Shown here piece by piece: positions 1 to 14,472 of a stretch of DNA of 15,693 nt. Both the position numbers and the translations under genes were made by a program. Origin of the DNA: a virus (taxonomy: Duplodnaviria > Heunggongvirae > Uroviricota > Caudoviricetes); IMG/VR virus record IMGVR_UViG_2778261355_000012. The stretch is one strand, 5' to 3'. The notes under the pieces are model-generated. The model saw only the letters and a list, made by a program, of their open reading frames with translations. It had not been told where the DNA came from and did no database searches. How positions within the stretch are numbered: position 1 is the first letter of the stretch; every line of letters begins with the position of its first letter.

Positions 1-537
1 TTACTCGTCCAGCAGAATCACTTTGCCGATATACGGCAGATGACGGTAACGCTGTGCGTAATCAATGCCGTAACCCACCACAAACTCATCCGGGATCGAG
101 AAACCGATAAATTCTACCGGGACGTTCACTTCACGACGGGACGGTTTATCCAGCAGCGTACAAATCGCCAGCGACTTCGGTTCGCGCAGGCTTAAGATCT
201 CACGCACTTTCGACAGTGTATTCCCCGAGTCGATGATATCTTCAACAATCAGCACGTCCTTGCCACGGATATCTTCATCCAGATCTTTGAGGATTTTCAC
301 ATCACGGGTGGTGGACATGCCGCTACCGTAGCTGGAGGCGGTCATAAAGTCGACTTCATGAGATACCTGAACTTCACGGCACAGGTCCGCCATAAACATA
401 AATGAGCCACGCAGCAGACCCACCAGCACCATATCGCTGCCGCTGTCTTTGTAACGCTCAGTAATCTGACGACCCAGTTCGGCGATACGCGCTTTAATCT
501 CCGCTTCGGGGATCATTACTTCTACAATATGTTTCAT
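1..537 (-). CDS. hpt: hypoxanthine phosphoribosyltransferase
   Basis: 178-aa product [35 protein letters not shown]...[14 protein letters not shown]...[10 protein letters not shown] matches E. coli Hpt over its full length from memory; includes the PRPP-binding [13 protein letters not shown] motif; ATG at 537-535, TAA at 3-1. Confidence 0.96.
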
Positions 538-1143
538 AATTCACATAACTCACTGATTTTTGTCAGTTAAAAACAAATTCACACGTAGCAATTTATCAAA
601 AGTGATACACCGAATGATATACGGATCGATACACAGCGCCACAATCTCAAAAAAGCACCAGCACAATTAGAAGGCCGCGAGTATACAACATCAGAAACAG
701 GAGAGGGCAAAGCACGTAATAATTTTCGTTTTTCACAAACGCAAAAATTTGGCGAGGCTGGCGGTCCCGGCAACATGAAGCTACAGAGATTTTGATCCCC
801 TGCATGGTGATGATGCCCATACAAGGCTATTTCATTTCAACGGAACCGGTATGACGAACATGATCGCACCTTCTCCCGAAAACGGTGCGACCTCCATAGA
901 GGAAATGCCTATTCAGATCCCCGGTGATTTTCACCATTCAGAATCTGGCGGGTGAGTTTCTCAATTTCCGCAGTTGGTGGAAATTAAACGAATACAGCGA
1001 GTTAGAACAAGGTGACTAATGGTCACTCTGTTGCTGCGTCACCATATTGATGATCCAGCCCTGTAGTCGCGCCACTTTTCCACCAATGGTGGAAAAGCCC
1101 ACAGCAGGCCGTCCAGCCTCCCCCAATGGGGGATTGTGGAAGA

Positions 1144-1468
1144 ATCAACGGGTTAGGCCTTACCAGCAAAAAAGCACATCAACTGTAACGGAAATCGTTA
1201 TGGTTGCTGGTGGGCTAAATCATCGTTATGGTGATGCAGCCATGTAGACGTTCCGGTCTCCTCAAATCGAGGTTTCCGAAAATATCAGTGAGTTAGCGAT
1301 TAAGCTGGCGAGTAATTAAACTGTGAAAATTTCGTAGTTTGTGACTATCTGAAAGATAGTCGGTTGATCCGGCCTCAGCCGTTGGCTGTTCCCGAAAATA
1401 TCAACGGGTTAGGCTGGTTTCCCCGATGTTCGCCGCTGGCGAATTTCGAAAATATCAACCAGTTACCG
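1144..1468. repeat. direct-repeat array: three full and one partial copy of a ~22-bp motif (consensus about CGAAAATATCAACGGGTTAGGC) at the junction between hpt and the island
   Basis: Read directly: atcaacgggttaggc (~1144-1158), ccgaaaatatcagtgagttagcg (~1276-1298), ccgaaaatatcaacgggttaggc (~1392-1414), tcgaaaatatcaaccagttaccg (~1446-1468). An 8-bp-stem palindrome GACTATCT-gaa-AGATAGTC sits between copies at ~1343-1361. Function (integrase arm sites vs packaging/TerS site) is inferred only. Confidence 0.7.
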
Positions 1469-1753
1469 CCGCAACCGCTCCGGCTTCTTCCAGTGGTAAG
1501 TTATTTTTTCCTTCTCCCGATACATCTCCACGCGGCGACGGTATGCCAGCATTTCCAGAACGCGGATCCGTATGTTGCGCATATCCACATCATTAAGCTG
1601 GATACCATTACGGCGCATCACTTCCGCTACAACACGCACATAATTTTCGGCGGTCACGCTGTCCGGCTGCGTGGCCTGTTCGTCATGCTGCTGGCTGATT
1701 CCGGTAACGCGGCGGATTATTTTTAGTAGTTCGGTTTCGCTCATTCTCGTCAT
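1463..1753 (-). CDS. hypothetical protein (96 aa), last gene of the packaging operon
   Basis: ORF overlaps the TerL stop by 4 nt (coupled translation); no motif recognised; its 3' end runs into the repeat array. Confidence 0.45.
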   Translation of the reverse strand: MTRMSETELLKIIRRVTGISQQHDEQATQPDSVTAENYVRVVAEVMRRNGIQLNDVDMRNIRIRVLEMLAYRRRVEMYREKEKITYHWKKPERLRR

Positions 1754-3420
1754 ACCCCATCAAACGCCGCAAGCCGCTCTTTGTGGCTGTCGCTCATATC
1801 AAATGCAAATTCCTCATGCTCTGCCTGGAATGTGCCAAACGCCATCAGCGCCGCAACGCTCGGGTCTATCTTGTTGGATGATTTTTTCTTGTTCGGCTTG
1901 ATATTGGCGTTCGCGTCACTCTGCATCACAACATTACTCATTGACCAGGCCAGCACCGGATCGCCACGATGCACAATCACCTTCCGGTTAACAAAAACTT
2001 CGAACGATTTCGCCGCCGGACTGAAACGAAGGTATGTTTGCGGGAACGGCTCCACCTCAAATCCTGCCCCCTGTAGCTGCGTCCTCAGGTGCGTGGCGTT
2101 CCATGTATCGAAGCCCACCAGCCTGATATTGAAATTCTCTGCATCCGCCATGATGTCATCACGGATACGGTCATAATCAATGCAGTCACCCGGTGTTGTG
2201 CGTATCCAGCCCGCCTTTACCCACTGGCGATAGATGGCGCGGTTTTTATTGGCGGGGTTCTGTAGCTGAAATTCCGGCAGATAGTGACGGGAAACCAGCA
2301 TAATCTTTTTACCGACCGGAAAGGCATAGCACACGCTGGAAATATCGCTGGTTGATGATAAGTCCAGCCCCGCGTAGCACTCCTGACCGTATAAATCCGC
2401 CTCCGCGAACGTTCCGGCGCACTCCGCCCATGCACCGTTACCCATCCACGGTGTAGCCCCCTGACACCAGATATTGAATCGCTTGGTGAGCATTTCCACC
2501 CACTGCGACGGAATACCCCGCGCTTTCTGGATGGTTGAGGCCAGTTTTTCACGATCGACGGAAACATCGATATTGGGATTCGCCTTTATCCACATCGCCG
2601 GCTCGTCAACCTCGCTTTCATCATCCAGCTCGTAAATCAGCACGAACATGGATTCGTTCACCTCTTCACCATCCAGTATCTGGCAGCAATAGTCATAGTG
2701 TTGTTTACAGGCTGAAACAACGTTGCTCCCCGATGTGGTGATGGCAAATAACAGCCCCTCCGGACGCGCCCCCATTCCCAGTTCAAGCGCGGAATAAACC
2801 CCGTTGTCAGGGTGCAGGTGATATTCATCCACAATGGCAAGACTCGGGTTTGTACCTTCAATGGTTGCCGCTTTTGCTGCCAGTGGCTTTAACAGGCTGT
2901 TGGTTTTCGGGTGTATCACCTTGTGTGTCTGAATATTTACCCGCTTTCGTAACGGTCGGGATAAAAGGCACATCTGACGCGCATCATCAAACACGATCCG
3001 CGCCTGATCACGACTCACGGCGGCGGTGTAAATATCCTGCTGCCCGTTTTCCATAACCAGAAACCAGTTAGCCAGGATAGCGGCGACCGTGGATTTGGCA
3101 TTTTTTCGCGGCACTTCAATGAATGCGCTGGTGTATTTGCGCCGTCCGGTGGCCTTAACCTTAAAGCCCAGGATGCACGCAAAGGCGAACTGCTGCCACG
3201 GCTCCAGCTCAATGGGGCTACCGCGCATTGCGCCTTTTACGTGCGGACACACCCTGGAAAAGGCAATAAACCGCTCCACGACCTCCGGATCGAACGTGTA
3301 AAGGGGGTTTTCAAGGTCAGAAAAATACCGTTTAACGGCCTGTTTCAGTCGTTTACAGGCCGTAATTTTGCCGTTTTTTACGCCTTCTGCGTACTCATGC
3401 CAGGCGGTCAAGCTCGTCAT
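1750..3420 (-). CDS. terminase large subunit (TerL)
   Basis: 556-aa product with the overall organisation of phage large terminases (N-terminal ATPase, C-terminal nuclease) by recollection; sits after TerS and HNH; overlaps TerS 3' end. Confidence 0.9.
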   Translation of the reverse strand: MTSLTAWHEYAEGVKNGKITACKRLKQAVKRYFSDLENPLYTFDPEVVERFIAFSRVCPHVKGAMRGSPIELEPWQQFAFACILGFKVKATGRRKYTSAFIEVPRKNAKSTVAAILANWFLVMENGQQDIYTAAVSRDQARIVFDDARQMCLLSRPLRKRVNIQTHKVIHPKTNSLLKPLAAKAATIEGTNPSLAIVDEYHLHPDNGVYSALELGMGARPEGLLFAITTSGSNVVSACKQHYDYCCQILDGEEVNESMFVLIYELDDESEVDEPAMWIKANPNIDVSVDREKLASTIQKARGIPSQWVEMLTKRFNIWCQGATPWMGNGAWAECAGTFAEADLYGQECYAGLDLSSTSDISSVCYAFPVGKKIMLVSRHYLPEFQLQNPANKNRAIYRQWVKAGWIRTTPGDCIDYDRIRDDIMADAENFNIRLVGFDTWNATHLRTQLQGAGFEVEPFPQTYLRFSPAAKSFEVFVNRKVIVHRGDPVLAWSMSNVVMQSDANANIKPNKKKSSNKIDPSVAALMAFGTFQAEHEEFAFDMSDSHKERLAAFDGV

Positions 3421-3751
3421 CTTCCTCTGTTTCCGGTGGATTTCTGCGGCGGCTTACCGGGTCAAAACCCAGCAAAGAAGCCATTTTGATCATTATTCTT
3501 TCAGCGTCAGCCTTTGCGCTCAGGGCGGGGTTTCTGCTCTCGCTGCCCTGACTGTTAACAATGCTGAACCCGCGCGTGGCAAGGTCTTCGACGGCTTTGC
3601 GGTATATGGAGTAGTTAACGCAATACAGCTCCAGATTGCTCCAGTCGGCGGGGGTAAGGTCTTCCCGTCCGGAAAGCTGGCGCGATTTTTCCTTCCACTG
3701 CCTGACCGCGATTTCATCCAGGTAAGCGGGGGCTTTTGGTGGTCTTGCCAT
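3395..3751 (-). CDS. terminase small subunit (P27-family-like TerS)
   Basis: Track ORF 3395..3892 trimmed to internal ATG at 3751 (MARPPKAPAYLDEIAVRQWKEK...), an N-terminus typical of P27-type small terminases; placed immediately upstream of TerL. Confidence 0.7.
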   Translation of the reverse strand: MARPPKAPAYLDEIAVRQWKEKSRQLSGREDLTPADWSNLELYCVNYSIYRKAVEDLATRGFSIVNSQGSESRNPALSAKADAERIMIKMASLLGFDPVSRRRNPPETEEDDELDRLA

Positions 3752-4039
3752 GTTCTTTTTTCGCCCAATTATTTTCAAAAAAATTCCCGTGCACAAAAAT
3801 TTGAGGAGGCGGTCGGTGTCCGGCAGGGACGGTTTCGTCCTGAAAACCACCCCCACCCCCTCTGACGGCCTCACCAGCGATTGCGACAACATTCCATGAT
3901 CTCGCGGTCACGGTCGGTTAATTGCTTCGCTGTGGTGCGTTCTGTGCGCCCTGTCCTGTTGGCTTTGTGCCCTGTCTCCTGTGTCTTCCATAAGTCACGC
4001 TGCCTTATCAGTCCACGTATCAGCCTGGTTTGCTCCTGT
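3752..4039. other. non-coding gap between HNH and TerS with a palindrome GGACGgtttCGTCC (~3827-3840) and a C/G-rich tract ccacccccaccccctc (~3847-3862); candidate cos/packaging site
   Basis: No credible ORF fills the gap (track ORFs here are antisense shadows). Position between HNH and TerS parallels cos placement in HK97-like phages. Inference only. Confidence 0.35.
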
Positions 4040-4480
4040 TCAGTCATCATCGCCATACATCCAGTCGTTACGGTGTGCTGCCCGTTCTTCCTGCTCGCGA
4101 TACATGCCCGCCTTACGGTTCGCTTTCGTGGCGGGATCTTCCCGTGTCGTCTTACGGTTGTGGCACGTCTGGCACAATGCCTGGTGGTTCCACTCAGGCC
4201 AGAAGAGAACATCACCGCCGCCATTGATGGGGATGATGTGATCCACCACAAGAGCTGGCGTATAAATCCCCTTAGCCAGACAACGCACGCATAACGGGTT
4301 TTTGCTCAGGTACAGGGCGCGGTATTTGTCCCACTGTCGGGAATACCCGCGCGCGCGGCGGTGTCCCCGTCTGGCATCCTCTGCACGCCATACAGCCCGT
4401 CTGTGCTCTTCACACTTGCCGGACTTCACGCGCTTATTACAGCCCGGCTCAGTGCATCGCCTTAATGGTTGCCACGGCAT
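4040..4480 (-). CDS. HNH endonuclease (packaging-associated)
   Basis: 146 aa with paired Cys motifs (CTEPGCNKR...C...C...CHNRK) and the His/Asn core (VVDHIIPINGGG...WNHQALCQTCHN) typical of HNH; start overlaps the connector stop (TGATG). Confidence 0.85.
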   Translation of the reverse strand: MPWQPLRRCTEPGCNKRVKSGKCEEHRRAVWRAEDARRGHRRARGYSRQWDKYRALYLSKNPLCVRCLAKGIYTPALVVDHIIPINGGGDVLFWPEWNHQALCQTCHNRKTTREDPATKANRKAGMYREQEERAAHRNDWMYGDDD

Positions 4481-4782
4481 CAGTACACCCCCACATCACG
4501 ATAAACCGACCAGAGCGCAGAAATAGCCATAGGCAGTTCAGACTGCTCCACTGGTGAAACTGCTTCCCTGTTCTCGTACAGGAAAGCGATGTACATCAGG
4601 CAACCAACACGCATTGCCGGGGTAAATTCCAGCCCGTCTTCAAAACGTTTCCCGATATGCTTCTGGCAGGCTTCCAGCGCCGCATCGGTATACATTTTCA
4701 GAAGTTCGCCTTCACCGGATAAATCATCATCAAGTCGAAGATGTGCCCTGACTTCATCAGGTGTAATTCTGGCTTCACTCAT
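4480..4782 (-). CDS. head-tail connector / gp6-like DNA-packaging protein
   Basis: Track ORF trimmed to ATG at 4782 preceded by GGGAG RBS; ~100 aa, MSEARITPDEVRAHLRLDDD... resembles gp6-type head-tail connector N-termini; overlaps portal 3' end. Confidence 0.6.
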   Translation of the reverse strand: MSEARITPDEVRAHLRLDDDLSGEGELLKMYTDAALEACQKHIGKRFEDGLEFTPAMRVGCLMYIAFLYENREAVSPVEQSELPMAISALWSVYRDVGVY

Positions 4783-5989
4783 CTTTTCTCCCTTTAATTT
4801 CCACAGTCTGTTTCCATGCCTGGCTGAACTCATCACCACCTTCACGCGGCGGCATACCCTCGCGTTCGCGAGCTTCGTTCGGATTCATGATCCCGCTCTT
4901 AATCCCTTTCTCATACGTGGCATAACGTTCGGTGGGTGTGGCGCGCAGTAAATCGGCTGAATCAAACTCAACCAGATAACGGGTACCAGGTACGGGAGAA
5001 GTCACCAGCAAAGCGGCCTTGATTTGCTGTTCGAAGTTCGCCAGCCACGGGCGCATTGTCATGGTCAGAAATGCGCGGCTCGCCTCACTGAAATTGCTGT
5101 AGGTGCTGTTGCTGTATTCCTGAAGAAAAATCGGCGACACGTTGAACATCCTGGCGATGTCTTCAATGGAGAAGCGACGGGAGGCCAGCCATTCCGCATC
5201 CTGGTTACTCATCCCCAGCTGCCTGTAATCCATGCCCCCTTCAAGGATTGGCGTTTTTCCGGCATTTTTCGCCCCCTTGTAGCGTTCCAGTGCGTCTAAT
5301 GCCTGTTTACCTTTCACGCCGTCCAGCCATTCACCTGACGTGATAATCCCTGCCGCCATCATGCCATCTTTCATAATGCTGGCTCCGTGACGCTGTTGAG
5401 CAAGGCCAAGCCCCAGCGCCTCACGGCAAATCGTGACGGGGGAACGCCCCAGAAAGCCATCATCCGAGGCATAGCGGAGATGCAGAACTTCTTCCTGTAA
5501 ATACGTGCGCACCGTTCCTGTACAGGGTTCGGTGATGGTATAGCGGTATTTGTGTGTGCCTGTGCGTTCCGGTACAACACACCCCGGCGCATAAGGATGA
5601 AGTGATTTTGGCTGCCCGTCCCGCCCCCACTCAATAACCGCATAGGCGTTACCGTTCAGCAGGCAGTGACGCATCATTGTGCGTTTAAACTGGTAAGGTG
5701 TCAGGCACGAATTAGGCTGCTCATTCAGCAGAATATCTACCGGGTGACTGTCCAGCCATTCCCGCGCCTCTCTGCCCTTATCATTGCGTACCAGATACAG
5801 GTAACACGGCATCGTGGCCACCGCCTCAGCGATGACAGAAACCGCGTTCATCACAGCAGGCAATGATTCAGCCGTCCCGGCAGAAACATATTCTCCGGAT
5901 CCGGTATTTGGTACACCAGACAACGCCAGAAAATCATCAATGGACAGGTTACGCAGATCGCTTTTTTTACGACTAAAAGGCCACCACAT
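4775..5989 (-). CDS. portal protein (HK97-family-like)
   Basis: Track ORF 4775..6079 trimmed to ATG at 5989 (MWWPFSRKK...), directly after the protease stop (TGA-T-ATG); ~400 aa with conserved portal stretches (FSIEDIARMFNVSPIFL, TMTMRPWLANFEQ). Confidence 0.88.
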   Translation of the reverse strand: MWWPFSRKKSDLRNLSIDDFLALSGVPNTGSGEYVSAGTAESLPAVMNAVSVIAEAVATMPCYLYLVRNDKGREAREWLDSHPVDILLNEQPNSCLTPYQFKRTMMRHCLLNGNAYAVIEWGRDGQPKSLHPYAPGCVVPERTGTHKYRYTITEPCTGTVRTYLQEEVLHLRYASDDGFLGRSPVTICREALGLGLAQQRHGASIMKDGMMAAGIITSGEWLDGVKGKQALDALERYKGAKNAGKTPILEGGMDYRQLGMSNQDAEWLASRRFSIEDIARMFNVSPIFLQEYSNSTYSNFSEASRAFLTMTMRPWLANFEQQIKAALLVTSPVPGTRYLVEFDSADLLRATPTERYATYEKGIKSGIMNPNEAREREGMPPREGGDEFSQAWKQTVEIKGRKDE

Positions 5990-5990
5990 A

Positions 5991-6551
5991 TCACAACCCC
6001 GCCAGTTCAGCCCAGCGATGACGATTATTTCCTGCCGGGCGTAATTCAGGGTACTGTGCAAACAACGAACGGTGGGCAATCTCCACGCCGGATTCGGGAT
6101 AAGCAGGCATCGATGTTATCGTGATTTCACGGAGTTCTGCGGCGGTTACAGTACGCAGATACGGTTTTTGCGCGATATTCCACTCCTCGCATAATGCGCG
6201 AAAGCCAAAGCTCATTCCTGTAATATCGCCACGTTCCACCAGCGTAAGCACATCTTTTCCAAGCTGGGTATTTGGCGGTGTCAGTTCAAAACGTAGCCCG
6301 GTGTTATCCTCAGTCAGTACCAGTGAGCCGGATTTGGTACGCCCCAGCAGTCGGGTATAGTCATGCTCATACAGACAGCGCACATCATTACCCGCCGCCA
6401 GATAGTCAGCAAAAGCCCCCGGCGTGAACTGTTCGCGAAACTCGTCCCAGATAATTTCTGAAAGGCTGTTCCAGCGAACGGCATAACCCACCAGTTTTTT
6501 ATCGCTGGCGGTCAGTTCAGATGTACGGATTTCAAAATCGGTGTTTTTCAT
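5991..6551 (-). CDS. prohead protease (HK97 / S78-family-like)
   Basis: Track ORF 5991..6776 trimmed to ATG at 6551 (MKNTDFEIRT...) with GGAG RBS ~9 nt upstream; the upstream extension overlaps the capsid gene. GYAVRWNS...FTPGAF...LYEHD pattern fits prohead proteases. Confidence 0.82.
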   Translation of the reverse strand: MKNTDFEIRTSELTASDKKLVGYAVRWNSLSEIIWDEFREQFTPGAFADYLAAGNDVRCLYEHDYTRLLGRTKSGSLVLTEDNTGLRFELTPPNTQLGKDVLTLVERGDITGMSFGFRALCEEWNIAQKPYLRTVTAAELREITITSMPAYPESGVEIAHRSLFAQYPELRPAGNNRHRWAELAGL

Positions 6552-6570
6552 CGGTGTACTCCATAAAGCT

Positions 6571-6592
6571 GAAAAAGGAGGCCGAAGCCCCC
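6571..6592 (-). terminator. hairpin plus U-tract between capsid and protease genes (attenuator or partial terminator)
   Basis: Minus-strand RNA GGGGGC-UUCG-GCCUCC (one G-U pair) followed by UUUUUC; the protease RBS lies just downstream. Confidence 0.4.
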
Positions 6593-6600
6593 TTTGCTCA

Positions 6601-7746
6601 TTACTTGCCAGCCTGAATTTCCAGAATCTTGATGGCGTTCGAATCCACCACACCACCGCCCAGATATTTCTGGGTATAGATGTTAATGAATCCAGGCTCG
6701 CTGAAATCCGGACGGGTACGCGTACCGGTTTTATGGTCAACGATGAAATAACCGCGCTTAAAGTCACCGACTGCAATCACACCGTCCGGCATAAATTCCA
6801 GATATTCAACCGGAAGCCCCAGCAGAGAATCAGGATCACCAGCCTGTAAACGATCGCGCCAGATGTAATCACCAGTGGCATTTTTCAGTTTTTGTGCGGA
6901 GGCGGCTGTATTTGAGTTCATCACCCATACAGCTTTTTTGCGGTACTTATTGCGCAGCGTAAATTTCAGGTCAATCAGCATATCGGCGCTGAGACTGCCA
7001 GTCACTTTTTTCGTCTGGAGCGTACCGAAAGGACGGGTTTTGTCATTATCCGTAGCGCGCGGGAAAGTCAGGAAACCTTTGGCTTTTTTCTCGCCATCAC
7101 CGGAAACCAGATCCGTTTCTTCGGTATCAACGAAAGTGTCGCCAATTTCAGAAGATAACCAGCCCATAATATCGACTTCGGAAAAATCGATAATTTCCTG
7201 AGTGGTTTTCGGGTAAGCGTAGATCGGATACAGGCGGATACTGACTTCATTCAGTTTTGGGGTTGCCGTCTGGTTACGTGCCGCACCTTCTTCGCCGTGT
7301 CCCACGACCGCACCCCCGGCAGAAACCAGTTGCTTAAATTCATTACTGTGAATGGTTTTAACAGTACAGATTTTACGCATCACCGACTCATCAGAAAGCT
7401 GACGCATAATTTCTCTGTTCAGTTCCGGGATAACCGTATAACCACCATCAGCCGGAACACTGCCGGACAGGTTGCGGGTTTCCCCGGTCAGAATGTAAGA
7501 GCGTAGCTCATTTTTGGTGATTTTATCTTCGACGGGAACACCAGGCTGGTTACGTTCTTCATCAGCCACAGACTCGAGGCGGGAAATTTCTGTGTCGAGG
7601 GAATCGGCTTTTGCACGCAGTTCATCAAACTGTTTGCCTTCGTCATCGGTTAGACTGCGGTTTTCACTGTCGGCTTTTTCCAGCAGGGATCGCATCTGGT
7701 TTTTCAGGGCGGTTTTTTGCTGGCGGAGTTCGATTAATTTCTTCAT
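6601..7746 (-). CDS. major capsid protein (HK97-fold)
   Basis: 381 aa; coiled-coil N-terminal ~100 aa (scaffold/delta-like) followed by a core typical of HK97-family capsids by recollection; followed directly by protease. Confidence 0.88.
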   Translation of the reverse strand: MKKLIELRQQKTALKNQMRSLLEKADSENRSLTDDEGKQFDELRAKADSLDTEISRLESVADEERNQPGVPVEDKITKNELRSYILTGETRNLSGSVPADGGYTVIPELNREIMRQLSDESVMRKICTVKTIHSNEFKQLVSAGGAVVGHGEEGAARNQTATPKLNEVSIRLYPIYAYPKTTQEIIDFSEVDIMGWLSSEIGDTFVDTEETDLVSGDGEKKAKGFLTFPRATDNDKTRPFGTLQTKKVTGSLSADMLIDLKFTLRNKYRKKAVWVMNSNTAASAQKLKNATGDYIWRDRLQAGDPDSLLGLPVEYLEFMPDGVIAVGDFKRGYFIVDHKTGTRTRPDFSEPGFINIYTQKYLGGGVVDSNAIKILEIQAGK

Positions 7747-7983
7747 GAAGGTTTTCTCGCATTGGTTAAGATTCAGGACGTGAAACCAACACGGGGGGAG
7801 CGCCGCCCGACACTCTCGGCATCTCGCAGATCAACCCGGCATCGCGCAGGGGGTCAGGCGGCATTGTGGCGGCTCACGTCTGAGTGCCACACGCCAACAT
7901 ATACATAAAAATCAGTATGTAAACATCAACCAGAATCACCGAACAACCTGGAACAACCACGAACAAATAATTTACAAAACCTG

Positions 7984-8010
7984 AAAAAAGACCCGGAAAA
8001 AATCCGGGCC
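7984..8010 (-). terminator. rho-independent terminator ending the replication operon
   Basis: Minus-strand hairpin CCCGGA-uuuuuu-UCCGGG followed by UCUUUUUU; sits just past the stop of the 82-aa ORF and ahead of the capsid promoter region. Confidence 0.7.
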
Positions 8011-8019
8011 TTTATCGCT

Positions 8020-8268
8020 TTATTGTTTCACTGGCTCCCGCATTCTGCGTCTTATTTTCCACAAATATTCGATCATCGCTTCCACCTGCTCACGGTTGGT
8101 TGCGAAAATTTCCCCGGTCAGTGAGCTACGCAGAAAATCATGATGATCCACAAAAAATAACGCATCGGAAGAAAGCAACCGACGATATTTTTTTGCTGTC
8201 GTGGTTTCCAGATCATCAAAACCATGAAGCTTTTTATGTTGCTGAACTTCTTCGAATGTCACTGGCAT
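8020..8268 (-). CDS. hypothetical protein (82 aa)
   Basis: Start overlaps the 3' end of the FinO-like gene by 10 nt; followed by the terminator; no motif recognised. Confidence 0.45.
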   Translation of the reverse strand: MPVTFEEVQQHKKLHGFDDLETTTAKKYRRLLSSDALFFVDHHDFLRSSLTGEIFATNREQVEAMIEYLWKIRRRMREPVKQ

Positions 8269-8789
8269 GTATCCCCCTTTGCTGCCCGGCGCTGGCGCTT
8301 GTGCTTCTCATTCAGCACCATCAGCCGTGTTTCTGCCTCCTGCTGTTCCTGTGGTGTCACTTCCCCACATGGCTGGCCTTTCAGGTCGTAACGTGCGCCA
8401 CCAGCTATCAGGGCGCGGTAATAGCGCGGAGACTGCGCATAGGATGCCAGCGTCGCACGTAATACCCCCGACCCGAATGCCAGCCCCCTGACGGCGATAT
8501 CCTGCATCAGGTCGTCGAATATCCCCACCTTAAGCGGCTTCGGTGCTTTATGGCTGAATAAGTCAGGCCACATCTCAGTGAGGCGGTTAACGCGTCGGCG
8601 GTTTTTGCGCTGCCTTTTGGTCATATGCTGCCACGGTGTCGCCCCTGTGGGCTTCTGCTGTGCGTTCTGATTGCCGGGTATCACTTTATGCGCCGATGTG
8701 GTTTTATCCTGCTCTTGCGCCGCCTGCGTCGTTTTCTGCGGCGTGCCGTAAATGCCTTTCGGCTTCCGGTTAATGGTCAGCGTTGTCAT
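8259..8789 (-). CDS. ProQ/FinO-domain RNA-binding protein
   Basis: Residues ~70-155 (WPDLFSHKAPKPLKVGIFDDLMQDIA...VLRATLASYAQSPRYYRALIAGGARYDLKGQPCGEVTPQEQ) align by eye with the E. coli ProQ N-terminal domain (FPHCF...PLKIGIFQDL...[35 protein letters not shown]); basic, low-complexity N-terminus. Confidence 0.8.
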   Translation of the reverse strand: MTTLTINRKPKGIYGTPQKTTQAAQEQDKTTSAHKVIPGNQNAQQKPTGATPWQHMTKRQRKNRRRVNRLTEMWPDLFSHKAPKPLKVGIFDDLMQDIAVRGLAFGSGVLRATLASYAQSPRYYRALIAGGARYDLKGQPCGEVTPQEQQEAETRLMVLNEKHKRQRRAAKGDTCQ

Positions 8790-8825
8790 GCCTTCCCCTG
8801 TAATTACTCTGTTCGCTGTTGTGAA

Positions 8826-9251
8826 TTAAAACGGTATGTTATCCCCGTACGGGTCATCGTGCTGGCTTGTCTGTTGTTTTGCCCTGTTCAGTGCGTCAGT
8901 GGCCTGGCCCTGTTGACCTTTTTTGCCGCCCGGTCGCGCCGTTCGCGCACTGATTACGCTGTCTGCAATAACCTGCCAGCCCCGCTGCGTTTCCCCGTTC
9001 TGGCCTGTCCACTGGCTCACCTGCATGTTACCCGCCACGCTCACCAGTTCGCCTTTGTGGTGTTTTGCCAGTGCGTCGGCCTGTCTGCCAAACGCCAGGA
9101 CAGATAACCACATCGTCGCCGTTCCGTCATCTGCCTGGCTGCACGGCAGGGGAACCGCCATACTCGCCATCGCCATTTGTGTCCCTTTGCTGGTGGTCTT
9201 TAACTGCGGGTCAGCCACCAGCCGCCCGTAAGCCGCTATCTGTGCTGTCAT
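8826..9251 (-). CDS. single-stranded DNA-binding protein (SSB)
   Basis: 141 aa with OB-fold SSB pattern (GRLVADPQL...MWLSVLAFGRQA...KGELVSVAGNMQVSQWTGQNGETQRGWQV), Gly/Gln-rich linker and acidic tail ending DNIPF (canonical DDDIPF). Confidence 0.8.
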   Translation of the reverse strand: MTAQIAAYGRLVADPQLKTTSKGTQMAMASMAVPLPCSQADDGTATMWLSVLAFGRQADALAKHHKGELVSVAGNMQVSQWTGQNGETQRGWQVIADSVISARTARPGGKKGQQGQATDALNRAKQQTSQHDDPYGDNIPF

Positions 9252-9493
9252 GCTGTCTGCTCTCCGGTTTTAACGTTGATGGTTGTCACCTGTTCCGCTT
9301 CGGCAATCTCCCGTTCTGTCAGCGTGGCAAAGTTTGCTGCCGCCGTGGTCATGAATGCGCTTATCAGTTCGGGATGTGCTTTTGCGTACCCTTCTCCCGC
9401 GTTGCGGTCGATGATTTTTATCGCCACCCTCAGCCAGTGTTCTGTCAAATCAAGGGCGTGAGATTGTGGTTTTTTTGCGTGCTTCGTTGTCAC
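9248..9493 (-). CDS. hypothetical protein (81 aa, GTG start)
   Basis: GTG start with GAGGT RBS ~8 nt upstream; stop overlaps SSB start; no motif recognised. Confidence 0.45.
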   Translation of the reverse strand: MTTKHAKKPQSHALDLTEHWLRVAIKIIDRNAGEGYAKAHPELISAFMTTAAANFATLTEREIAEAEQVTTINVKTGEQTA

Positions 9494-9540
9494 AGGCTTT
9501 ACCTCACAGCAATAAAATAAAATTTTTGCATTTTAACCCT

Positions 9541-9770
9541 TCACCTGTTCACCTTTTGAGATTTTCCCTTTTTATTCATAATGTTAAGGGGTGAACAGTT
9601 TCACAAAAACTATTCACCAACTGTTCACCACTGTTCACCCTTAAAGCTCAATAAATAATCAAAAAGGTGAACAGTGAATAGTTTGGTGAACAGTTCACAA
9701 ATAACTGTTCACCCTATAATGTACTGATATAAAAGATATTTATCACAGGGTGAACAGTGGTGAACAGTTA
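9541..9770. repeat. iteron field: at least 9 perfect copies of TGTTCACC / GGTGAACA in both orientations plus variants, with an adjacent AT-rich tract; candidate replication origin
   Basis: Read directly: perfect octamers at ~9546, 9590, 9622, 9632, 9666, 9685, 9706, 9749, 9759; AT-rich tataatgtactgatataaaagatatttatc at ~9714-9743. The octamer is the one I recall as the phage P4 alpha-binding type I iteron. Confidence 0.8.
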
Positions 9771-13444: not shown

Positions 13445-14374
13445 TTACTGCGATCTTTCACTCGGCCTCTTATGAGCATTACTTAAAATTGCTGCTATTT
13501 TTGTTTCTGTTTTTATTGGCAATTCACTATTAATGAACCAATCAGGTCTGGCGATCAACTCACGAGCCCAAGCAGAATAGTTAATCGTTCCATCGTTTTT
13601 TCTGCAGGTCTCATTAAAAGTATTTTGTTGCTCTTCTTTAAAACGCATAGCAACCATTAAAATTTGCTCTCGATTTCTTGCATGTCTTTCAGCAGAATGG
13701 TGCACAATTTCATTGCCATTCATCTTGTGAGGTTCTACAGATTCAAAATTATCTGTTAGCGTAAAATAATCGCCACCACAGTCAAGAAGTCGCCTTATAT
13801 CATGAGCGGTAATCCACAAGTCATTTATAGAAATATTATTCTTTAATATTTGATCGTCTTCTTCATCATAATCACTATCTTCACCAACCATTAAAAGTTG
13901 TACGGCAGGATTATCAGTTTCTGGATGACACGGGGTTAATTCAAAACCACTTAGGGAATACTCTCCAAAATTTTGTAGCTCTTCCAGCCCACTCCAAAGA
14001 CGCCACAATCCATAAGCCCTACCAATAGAGCTAAAGCATCCGTTTTCTGAGTCTTGACCGAATAAAGGCGCGTGTATAGTTTCATCTGTCTCCTCATTAT
14101 AATTGTATCTGAAAAGATGAAATCTGGAGTATTCCGTAATATTGTTCCCCATCAGTGATGTGGTCGATTTTGCATTTCTGGTATCAAACCAAGCAGTTGC
14201 AGACTCGCTATCAGTATTCATATATAAAACAGCGCGAGCATCAAATAAATTTAGGCATAAAGCTATTTTTTTAGTAACACCTAAATTCACGAGATCGCTA
14301 ATCTCGCAACCCAGCAATCTTGATGCACGTTCAATGTTGCAATACTGAAAAGGAATTTTAATGTCGTTAGCCAT
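13445..14374 (-). CDS. hypothetical protein (309 aa), AT-rich cargo gene between int and alpA
   Basis: Long clean ORF with GAGGG RBS 6 nt upstream; markedly lower GC than flanking genes (by eye); acidic central stretch EDSDYDEEDDQ; no domain recognised. Confidence 0.7.
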   Translation of the reverse strand: MANDIKIPFQYCNIERASRLLGCEISDLVNLGVTKKIALCLNLFDARAVLYMNTDSESATAWFDTRNAKSTTSLMGNNITEYSRFHLFRYNYNEETDETIHAPLFGQDSENGCFSSIGRAYGLWRLWSGLEELQNFGEYSLSGFELTPCHPETDNPAVQLLMVGEDSDYDEEDDQILKNNISINDLWITAHDIRRLLDCGGDYFTLTDNFESVEPHKMNGNEIVHHSAERHARNREQILMVAMRFKEEQQNTFNETCRKNDGTINYSAWARELIARPDWFINSELPIKTETKIAAILSNAHKRPSERSQ

Positions 14375-14472
14375 TGCGCTACCCTCAACGCCCTAAATAC
14401 TTTACGAGCCAGGCGGGTAGGGTTTCCCGCTTTTCGGTTGGCCGACCTATGCCCGTAATATCAGTTTAACCT

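Follow-up and report, generated by a model that had tools for sequence, protein, structure and literature searches.

The stretch of DNA analysed here (15,693 nt, IMG/VR record IMGVR_UViG_2778261355_000012; hereafter the window) recurs at 100% identity in the Escherichia coli ATCC 43886 chromosome, where an island of ~15.1 kb lies between hpt (window 1-537) and gcd with all of its genes on the minus strand. In transcription order, the head and packaging block of this island runs from the capsid gene through protease, portal, connector, HNH endonuclease and a 61-aa open reading frame (ORF) to a non-coding gap, which is followed by the terminase genes TerS and TerL (Table 1). This block was compared with those of phage-inducible chromosomal islands of the capsid-forming kind (cf-PICIs) and of HK97-like phages. 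A second genome carries the same island, and the packaging half was found at ~98% identity in many others.

Table 1. Features of the packaging block and the region upstream of it (window coordinates), followed by the junctions between neighbouring genes.
Feature	Position	Strand	Description
Intrinsic terminator after 82-aa ORF	7984-8010	-	GGCCCGGA-UUUUU-UCCGGGUC then UUUUUU
Sigma-70-like promoter candidate for the packaging operon	7896-7923	-	TTTACA-16 nt-TATGTT; from consensus scan
Structured 5' leader	7747-7890	-	stem-loop SL1 7890-7866; SL2 7862-7802; C-rich linker 7801-7792; SL3 7787-7750
Major capsid protein	6601-7746	-	381 aa, HK97 fold; PF05065 Phage_capsid 7e-61; phrog_10 1e-85
Terminator-like hairpin	6572-6595	-	AAAGGGGGC-UUCG-GCCUCCUUU then UU; in the 49-nt capsid-protease gap
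Prohead serine protease (S78)	5991-6551	-	186 aa; PF04586 Peptidase_S78 2e-44; start 6551 preceded by GGAG
Portal protein	4775-5989	-	404 aa; PF04860 Phage_portal 2e-91
gp6-like head-tail connector (PHROG Ad1)	4480-4782	-	100 aa; PF05135 2e-05 to 4e-05; phrog_40 2e-28
HNH endonuclease, packaging accessory of HK97-type terminases	4040-4480	-	PF01844 9e-10; phrog_144 7e-45
61-aa ORF	3871-4056	-	phrog_3173 7e-26; RefSeq-annotated
Candidate cos region	3752-3870	-	G-rich box 3860-3847; CCGACCGCCTCC 3816-3805; TCAAATTTTTGTGCACGG 3804-3787; AT-rich box 3786-3769
TerS (P27 family)	3395-3751	-	PF05119 (Terminase_4) 5e-23; phrog_83 4e-38
TerL, ATPase + nuclease	1750-3420	-	PF03354 + PF20441; start ATG 3420 or TTG 3411
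93-aa ORF, coupled to TerL stop	1463-1744	-	phrog_1561 6e-55; no Pfam match
Capsid>protease junction			49-nt gap
Protease>portal junction			1-nt spacer (TGAtATG)
Portal>connector junction	4775-4782		8-nt overlap (ATGAGTGA)
Connector>HNH junction			1-nt overlap (TGATG)
HNH>61-aa ORF junction			17-nt overlap
61-aa ORF>TerS junction	3752-3870		119-nt gap
TerS>TerL junction			17-26-nt overlap
TerL>93/96-aa ORF junction			ATGA overlap or 5-nt gap

Gene identities were assigned with Pfam and PHROGs, and the RefSeq annotation of the identical ATCC 43886 locus agrees with them. An initial annotation of the window had taken the 381-aa protein for the capsid protein and had made its account of the locus dependent on that assignment. 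Pfam, PHROGs, the PDB and RefSeq all agree on a capsid protein, and a misassignment of the protein identities is thereby ruled out. The ORF includes the N-terminal delta/scaffold region, and its product matches the solved 385-aa 'Major head protein' of PDB entry 9GYI with an E-value of 1e-184. The sequence of this entry is near-identical to a large E. coli cluster of capsid proteins (P0024), to which the capsid protein of the window is ~74% identical. The four chains of 9GYI fit the four-subunit asymmetric unit of the EcCIEDL933 capsid, which is a T=4 particle (He et al., 10.1101/2025.02.11.637232). In the same comparison with solved structures, the next matches were the gene transfer agent capsids of Rhodobacter capsulatus (6TB9/6TBA, E about 2e-47), and no phage capsid chain, including that of HK97, was found by sequence at the 1e-05 cutoff. 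Regarding the smaller genes of the block, the 61-aa ORF was found in 13/59 loci (window counted) and in many viral contigs, and the 93-aa ORF is shared with an EDL933-type relative (L027).

The capsid-first order of the head module, which the initial annotation had singled out as non-canonical, was confirmed in both identities and coordinates and is identical in 58/58 complete relatives from Enterobacterales, Orbales and Pasteurella. These relatives are mostly GTDB species representatives of Enterobacterales and Orbales, and two of them are deposited records labelled as phages, namely vB_KppS-Ant and the Pasteurella element Pmp8. The same order was seen in 120 IMG/VR viral contigs wherever a contig was informative, and this regularity is well beyond chance. 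Both the order and the gaps are kept across several bacterial families at capsid identities of 57-88%. The true phages with the most similar capsids are HK97, phiP27 and SfI (33-37% identity), and their modules read TerS-TerL-portal-protease-capsid-Ad1-Hc1, followed by tail genes. They have in common with the island the HK97-fold capsid, the S78 protease, the portal, the gp6-like connector and the segment HNH-cos-TerS-TerL. Directly upstream of TerS, phiP27 has HNH and an annotated cos site, and the HNH-gap-TerS-TerL segment of the window is arranged alike. The island differs from these phages in that the head genes are reversed and placed upstream of HNH, and that no tail genes follow.

With regards to the position of the terminase genes, the claim of a non-canonical order can be kept only in part. 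The reversal of capsid-protease-portal and of Hc1-Ad1 is real, but the impression of a terminase at the end follows largely from the opening of the map, as the integrated map happens to be opened at that position; if it is opened at the cos-like gap instead, TerS-TerL come first and HNH comes last. What the check adds is therefore that the reversed capsid-protease-portal and Hc1-Ad1 genes (Hc1 in the relatives), placed upstream of HNH, are the sole real rearrangement. The initial pointer to cf-PICIs was correct, since exactly this conserved order has been described for the proteobacterial cf-PICIs (Alqurainy et al., 10.1101/2022.09.08.507074) and serves as a search criterion in the work of He et al. 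(10.1101/2025.02.11.637232). The order is thus a published hallmark of these elements and is not new. The cf-PICIs of Firmicutes have the same gene content and satellite lifestyle and are of independent origin, with portal-protease-capsid first in one group and HNH-TerS-TerL first in another (Alqurainy et al., 10.1101/2022.09.08.507074).

Several observations were made during this survey. A tandem duplication of the capsid-protease pair precedes an otherwise standard module in Xenorhabdus kozodoii (L026, about 1489-4560), and many Xenorhabdus genomes hold several cf-PICI-like loci. Sequence of the cf-PICI type is also contained in four GenBank deposits labelled as phages. LR881103.1 (L002, 16.5 kb) and OR544139.1 (L003, 15.3 kb) represent complete elements in which the genes follow the cf-PICI order, OR850982.1 is a fragment of 3.8 kb that carries no annotation, and PQ569648.1 (L208) is a 106-kb record with capsid, protease and portal in cf-PICI order at its end. 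In vB_KppS-Ant, a 765-aa ORF annotated as tape measure protein follows immediately after TerL.

The remaining part of the island corresponds to this assignment. In transcription order, its backbone consists of a tyrosine integrase (PF00589/PF13356), an int-alpA RNA, a 309-aa ORF, AlpA (PF05930), small regulators and a D5-type primase-helicase (D5_N/Pox_D5), after which an SSB and a ProQ/FinO-family protein are encoded upstream of the packaging operon. The integrase, AlpA regulation and primase replication modules expected of a cf-PICI are therefore all present. The int-alpA RNA was recognized by Rfam (RF02996, window 14391-14457, minus strand) with 55.2 bits, which exceeds the gathering score. 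The island size lies within the range of ~10-18 kb given for cf-PICIs (He et al. 2025 / SatelliteFinder). Neither lysis genes nor a complete tail module, both of which a cf-PICI lacks, were found; no tail, holin or lysin gene is listed in the RefSeq feature table, and none emerged when ORFs without an assigned function were scanned with Pfam, PHROG and PADLOC. Imperfect direct repeats of 36 nt (83% identity) flank the island at window 597-632 and 15713-15748 with a spacing of 15,116 nt. The right copy lies ~20 nt beyond the right end of the window (L001 18713-18748; window positions are L001 coordinates minus 3000), and from their sequence and placement the repeats are probably the att sites.

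The same int-alpA-primase backbone, a size of about 15 kb and the lack of tail and lysis genes characterize the proteobacterial cf-PICIs with the prototype EcCIEDL933 as well as EcCIGN02175 and KpCIDSM30104. Classical Gram-negative PICIs of the EcCICFT073 type share the left half with int, alpA, primase-replication genes and the int-alpA RNA motif. However, these redirect the capsids and terminase of a helper and, unlike the island, have no capsid, portal, connectors or TerL of their own. Compared with EcCIEDL933-type cf-PICIs, the island differs by the ProQ/FinO-family and SSB genes ahead of its operon and by having only a single gene for head-tail joining. The PF05521 head-completion gene (the 'adaptor' of the cf-PICI papers), which lies between portal and connector in 48/59 loci (window counted), is absent here, as the portal and connector ORFs overlap. 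Nine other relatives from various genera are also devoid of this gene, and seven of them have a portal-connector overlap of 8-20 nt. Of the eight packaging genes that define a cf-PICI, seven are accordingly present in the stated order, the PF05521 'adaptor' being the missing one. The cfPICI model of SatelliteFinder comprises 11 core components, and ten of them suffice for its 'Type B', a variant that is common; in these terms, the island would be a 10-of-11-component 'Type B' cfPICI.

The initial annotation had further described tight translational coupling throughout the block. This holds for most junctions, which are overlapping or at most 5 nt apart in 84-100% of the loci, but not for two conserved gaps. 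In the relatives, the median length of the capsid>protease gap is 44 nt, and the gap before TerS is never shorter than 109 nt. Exactly two uncoupled points are thus conserved in the layout, the first holding the post-capsid hairpin and the second being the cos gap.

The hairpin (6595-6574) begins 5 nt past the tandem stop codons UAAUGA of the capsid gene. It folds with -16.7 kcal/mol (z=-2.8; 1/200 shuffles folds as well) into a nine-pair stem that includes a G-U pair and is closed by a cUUCGg loop, with five consecutive U across stem end and tail. Judged by its sequence, the element at 6572-6595 possesses the structural hallmarks of an intrinsic terminator, i.e., a GC-rich stem, a short loop and an immediate U tract. 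When the whole 86-nt capsid-protease junction was folded, the result was unremarkable (z=-0.6), and only the isolated hairpin stands out. A scan for consensus promoters and terminators (window 1000-9600) listed neither the hairpin nor a textbook terminator at 8010-7984, and as it missed the latter too, its negative outcome should not be equated with absence.

Comparable hairpins occur at 165/181 related junctions, equal to 98/111 distinct sequences with 37 helix variants. Among the related capsid-protease gaps of at least 25 nt, 94% hold a hairpin of -8 kcal/mol or lower, compared with 5% of the shuffles. As the MAFFT alignment of the hairpins mixes two stem registers, it was not used for pair counting, and the helices were tabulated for each sequence instead. 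The covariation support is modest because the GGGG/CCCC core is nearly invariant. What argues for the hairpin is its conserved position combined with differing sequences in Proteus, Pasteurella and phages. In the elements of Proteus and Pasteurella, another hairpin takes this place. SfI and phiP27 also show a strong hairpin directly after the capsid stop, the one of SfI without a U run, and the RefSeq record of HK97 lists a 'putative terminator' after the capsid gene (GGGGGCGGG-GAAA-CCCGCCC then UUUU, -21 kcal/mol). The hairpin pointed out by the initial annotation is hence real and conserved, but since HK97, SfI and phiP27 have one as well, it is not tied to the capsid-first order. In HK97-type modules it thus accompanies the capsid gene by inheritance and is not an adaptation to the cf-PICI order.

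The motifs in the second gap are conserved across genera from Escherichia to Pasteurella. In the window, CCGACCGCCTCC adjoins TCAAATTTTT, similar to the annotated cos site of phiP27 (CGCCCGCCCC). Furthermore, the linear vB_KppS-Ant record both starts and ends inside the pre-TerS gap and lacks about 70 nt of it, which is what truncated physical ends would look like. From these likenesses, we infer that the 119-nt gap (3870-3752) is the cos site of the island.

Upstream of the block, the terminator at 8010-7984 (-18.1 kcal/mol, z=-5.6, 0/200 shuffles as good) would separate the replication and accessory genes from the packaging operon. The bases around the candidate promoter (7896-7923) are conserved in the relatives, and between promoter and capsid gene lies a structured leader. 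Its first stem-loop SL1 is a nearly invariant 25-mer (GTGGCACTCAGACGTGAGCCGCCAC), of which exact copies were found in more than 120 viral contigs and, across many genera, in 20/58 genome relatives. SL1 precedes the capsid ATG by 120-146 nt in every case, and this position is likely the 5' end of the transcript. Rare variants of SL1 retain the pairing (ATGGC...GCCAT, GTGAC...GTCAC, CTCC...GGAG), and in the EDL933-type relative L027 the sequence differs (GTGGTGCCAGGACGCTGGGGCCAC) with the GACG loop kept. SL2 occurs with 44 distinct outer helices, and compensatory double changes were observed at 8/9 pairs. The third stem, which reads GGTTTCACGT...ACGGAAACC in most relatives, follows the C-rich linker, and its 3' arm lies over the ribosome-binding zone. 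The heptamers GACGTGA of SL1 and TCACGTC of SL3 are reverse complements of each other.

An Rfam search of the leader gave no family and nothing near threshold, a full-text literature search for the SL1 sequence found no paper, and blastn against deposited phages returned only cf-PICI-like records. Neither of the two cf-PICI papers (Alqurainy et al.; He et al.) speaks of a hairpin, a terminator or a promoter. Readings of SL1 as a sigma-54 promoter or as an ops element were rejected by eye, since it shows neither the -12 TTGC nor the ops consensus. In its arrangement, with two stems right behind the candidate promoter, the leader recalls the put RNA of HK022; blastn showed no similarity in any phage record.

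Based on these data, we estimate a probability of about 85% that the block is the packaging operon of a cf-PICI, a satellite of ~15.1 kb whose layout capsid-protease-portal-connector-HNH-(cos)-TerS-TerL is fixed and published. Going by its gene content, the island would make its own small HK97-fold capsids, package its own cos DNA by means of its own HNH-TerS-TerL and need only the tails of a helper phage. The predicted helper-dependent lifestyle rests on homology with the capsid cluster P0024 (EDL933-type) and PDB 9GYI.

Per particle, about 235 capsid subunits (T=4) and 12 portal or connector subunits are needed, whereas terminase is needed in catalytic amounts. In the proposed mechanism, the terminator at 8010-7984 would close the upstream genes, and the promoter ~150 nt before the capsid gene would drive one long transcript with the capsid gene, whose product is needed in by far the largest amount, placed first. 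A leaky terminator or a 3'-stabilising hairpin after this gene would allow short capsid-only transcripts to accumulate. Read-through would then lead to a first translationally coupled string that comprises protease, portal, connector, HNH and the 61-aa ORF, and after the cos gap TerS, TerL and the 93-aa ORF would form a second one, so that the gene order would roughly descend from the most-needed to the least-needed product. This reasoning on stoichiometry and polarity draws on general knowledge of HK97-type capsids and bacterial operons. An influence of the hairpin on the capsid-to-downstream expression ratio, as proposed by the initial annotation, is inferred rather than observed.

Some findings do not sit easily with the cf-PICI packaging operon as outlined. 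The U run after the fully extended stem counts only 3-4 U in 69/98 distinct hairpins; the hairpin may consequently terminate weakly and exert its effect mainly through RNA stability. Moreover, it is missing from 16/181 junctions (the gaps of the individually listed ones measure 1-19 nt), and some lineages can thus dispense with it. Of all Shine-Dalgarno sequences in the operon, that of the capsid gene is the weakest, and SL3 covers that zone, a misfit with the simple picture of a first gene that is the most expressed. Lastly, the adaptor-connector pair sets tail specificity (He et al., 10.1101/2025.02.11.637232), and as the PF05521 gene is missing, tail joining by the island is only putative.

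Considering the short U runs in particular, it is possible, although we would not favour it, that the hairpin is no terminator at all and serves as a 3'-exonuclease barrier or marks a processing site that stabilises the capsid message after cleavage. By analogy, the same role has been inferred for hairpins after major structural genes in antiterminated phage late operons. Besides the 3-4 U in many relatives, the strong hairpin of SfI without a U run points in this direction, and so does HK97, which keeps its post-capsid hairpin although Q-modified polymerase transcribes its late genes. Resistance to terminators could also come from the conserved two-stem leader. However, the hairpin of the window with UUUUU at its stem shows the classic A-tract/U-tract arrangement of an intrinsic terminator. 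A full termination that leaves the capsid gene monocistronic, with promoters of their own for protease onward or TerS onward, appears improbable. Two or more such transcription units would agree with the two conserved non-coding gaps of 49 and 119 nt, the latter being AT-rich near TerS and able to hold a promoter. Yet the consensus scan found no promoter-like site on the minus strand in or near either gap and listed only 7923-7896 and one site inside the portal gene, the 49-nt gap is taken up by the hairpin and the ribosome-binding site of the protease, and seven distinct relatives with a gap below 25 nt and no hairpin imply co-transcription.

The origin of the block could also be sought in a decayed and rearranged HK97-like prophage, the odd order being a by-product of deletion and rearrangement. 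While the missing tail and lysis genes and the lack of one head-tail gene that most relatives have would suit a remnant, all ORFs are intact and coupled, and the same order and gaps recur across several bacterial families. The backbone is of the PICI type, the capsid falls close to the E. coli cluster P0024 (~74% identity), which is itself near-identical to PDB 9GYI, similar elements were recovered from induced particles (vB_KppS-Ant), and ten-component 'Type B' cfPICIs are common. Measured against a complete HK97-like prophage, the island deviates in gene order, in the absence of tail and lysis genes and in its 15.1 kb. We consider the decay of such a prophage very unlikely. Still less credible is a mere circular permutation of the canonical phage map, set by the position of the attachment site. 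HNH-cos-TerS-TerL is indeed arranged as in phiP27, and a map opened at cos starts with TerS-TerL like that of HK97, but no permutation that leaves the strand unchanged yields capsid-protease-portal from portal-protease-capsid, or Hc1-Ad1 from Ad1-Hc1. For the head genes, the phage gene orders thus lead us to reject a pure permutation.

Within the cf-PICI packaging operon, the leader invites a more tentative proposal. The ~145 nt at 7890-7747 might constitute a so far undescribed cis-regulatory RNA that controls the whole operon, a possibility to which we attach limited confidence. It could act as a put-type processive antiterminator that sets the read-through at the hairpin or, alternatively, as a translational switch.

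A few further features of the island were noted. The gene of the ProQ/FinO-family RNA-binding protein (window 8259-8789, minus strand) immediately precedes the packaging operon. It was found in a few viral contigs and, as far as the genome relatives are concerned, in the window-type island only. Its product could, speculatively, bind the leader or the terminator-like hairpins, but a role as their general partner is unlikely, as the gene is confined to window-type elements and few viral contigs. The int-alpA RNA is located here between the integrase gene and the 309-aa ORF and not immediately before alpA. This ORF (window 13445-14374, minus strand) occupies the int/alpA interval, where PICIs carry accessory genes; neither Pfam nor PADLOC gave a match, and its sole assignment is to a PHROG of unknown function (phrog_7144). 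At window 1112-1465, in the stretch from the 93-aa ORF to the att-like repeat, there are four direct repeats with lengths of 34-47 nt, a spacing of 54-140 nt and the core TTGATATTTTCG (gene strand).

As a finding on gene order, the block adds little, since the layout already serves as the signature by which proteobacterial cf-PICIs are detected. The post-capsid hairpin and the cos gap, on the other hand, may bear on how such a satellite sets the ratios of capsid, portal and terminase. A separate follow-up may be worthwhile for the leader RNA alone. If its proposed role holds true, the leader could help to explain why cf-PICIs produce capsids even without a helper phage, and it would offer a possible handle on the switching-on of capsid production in elements that move DNA between species.

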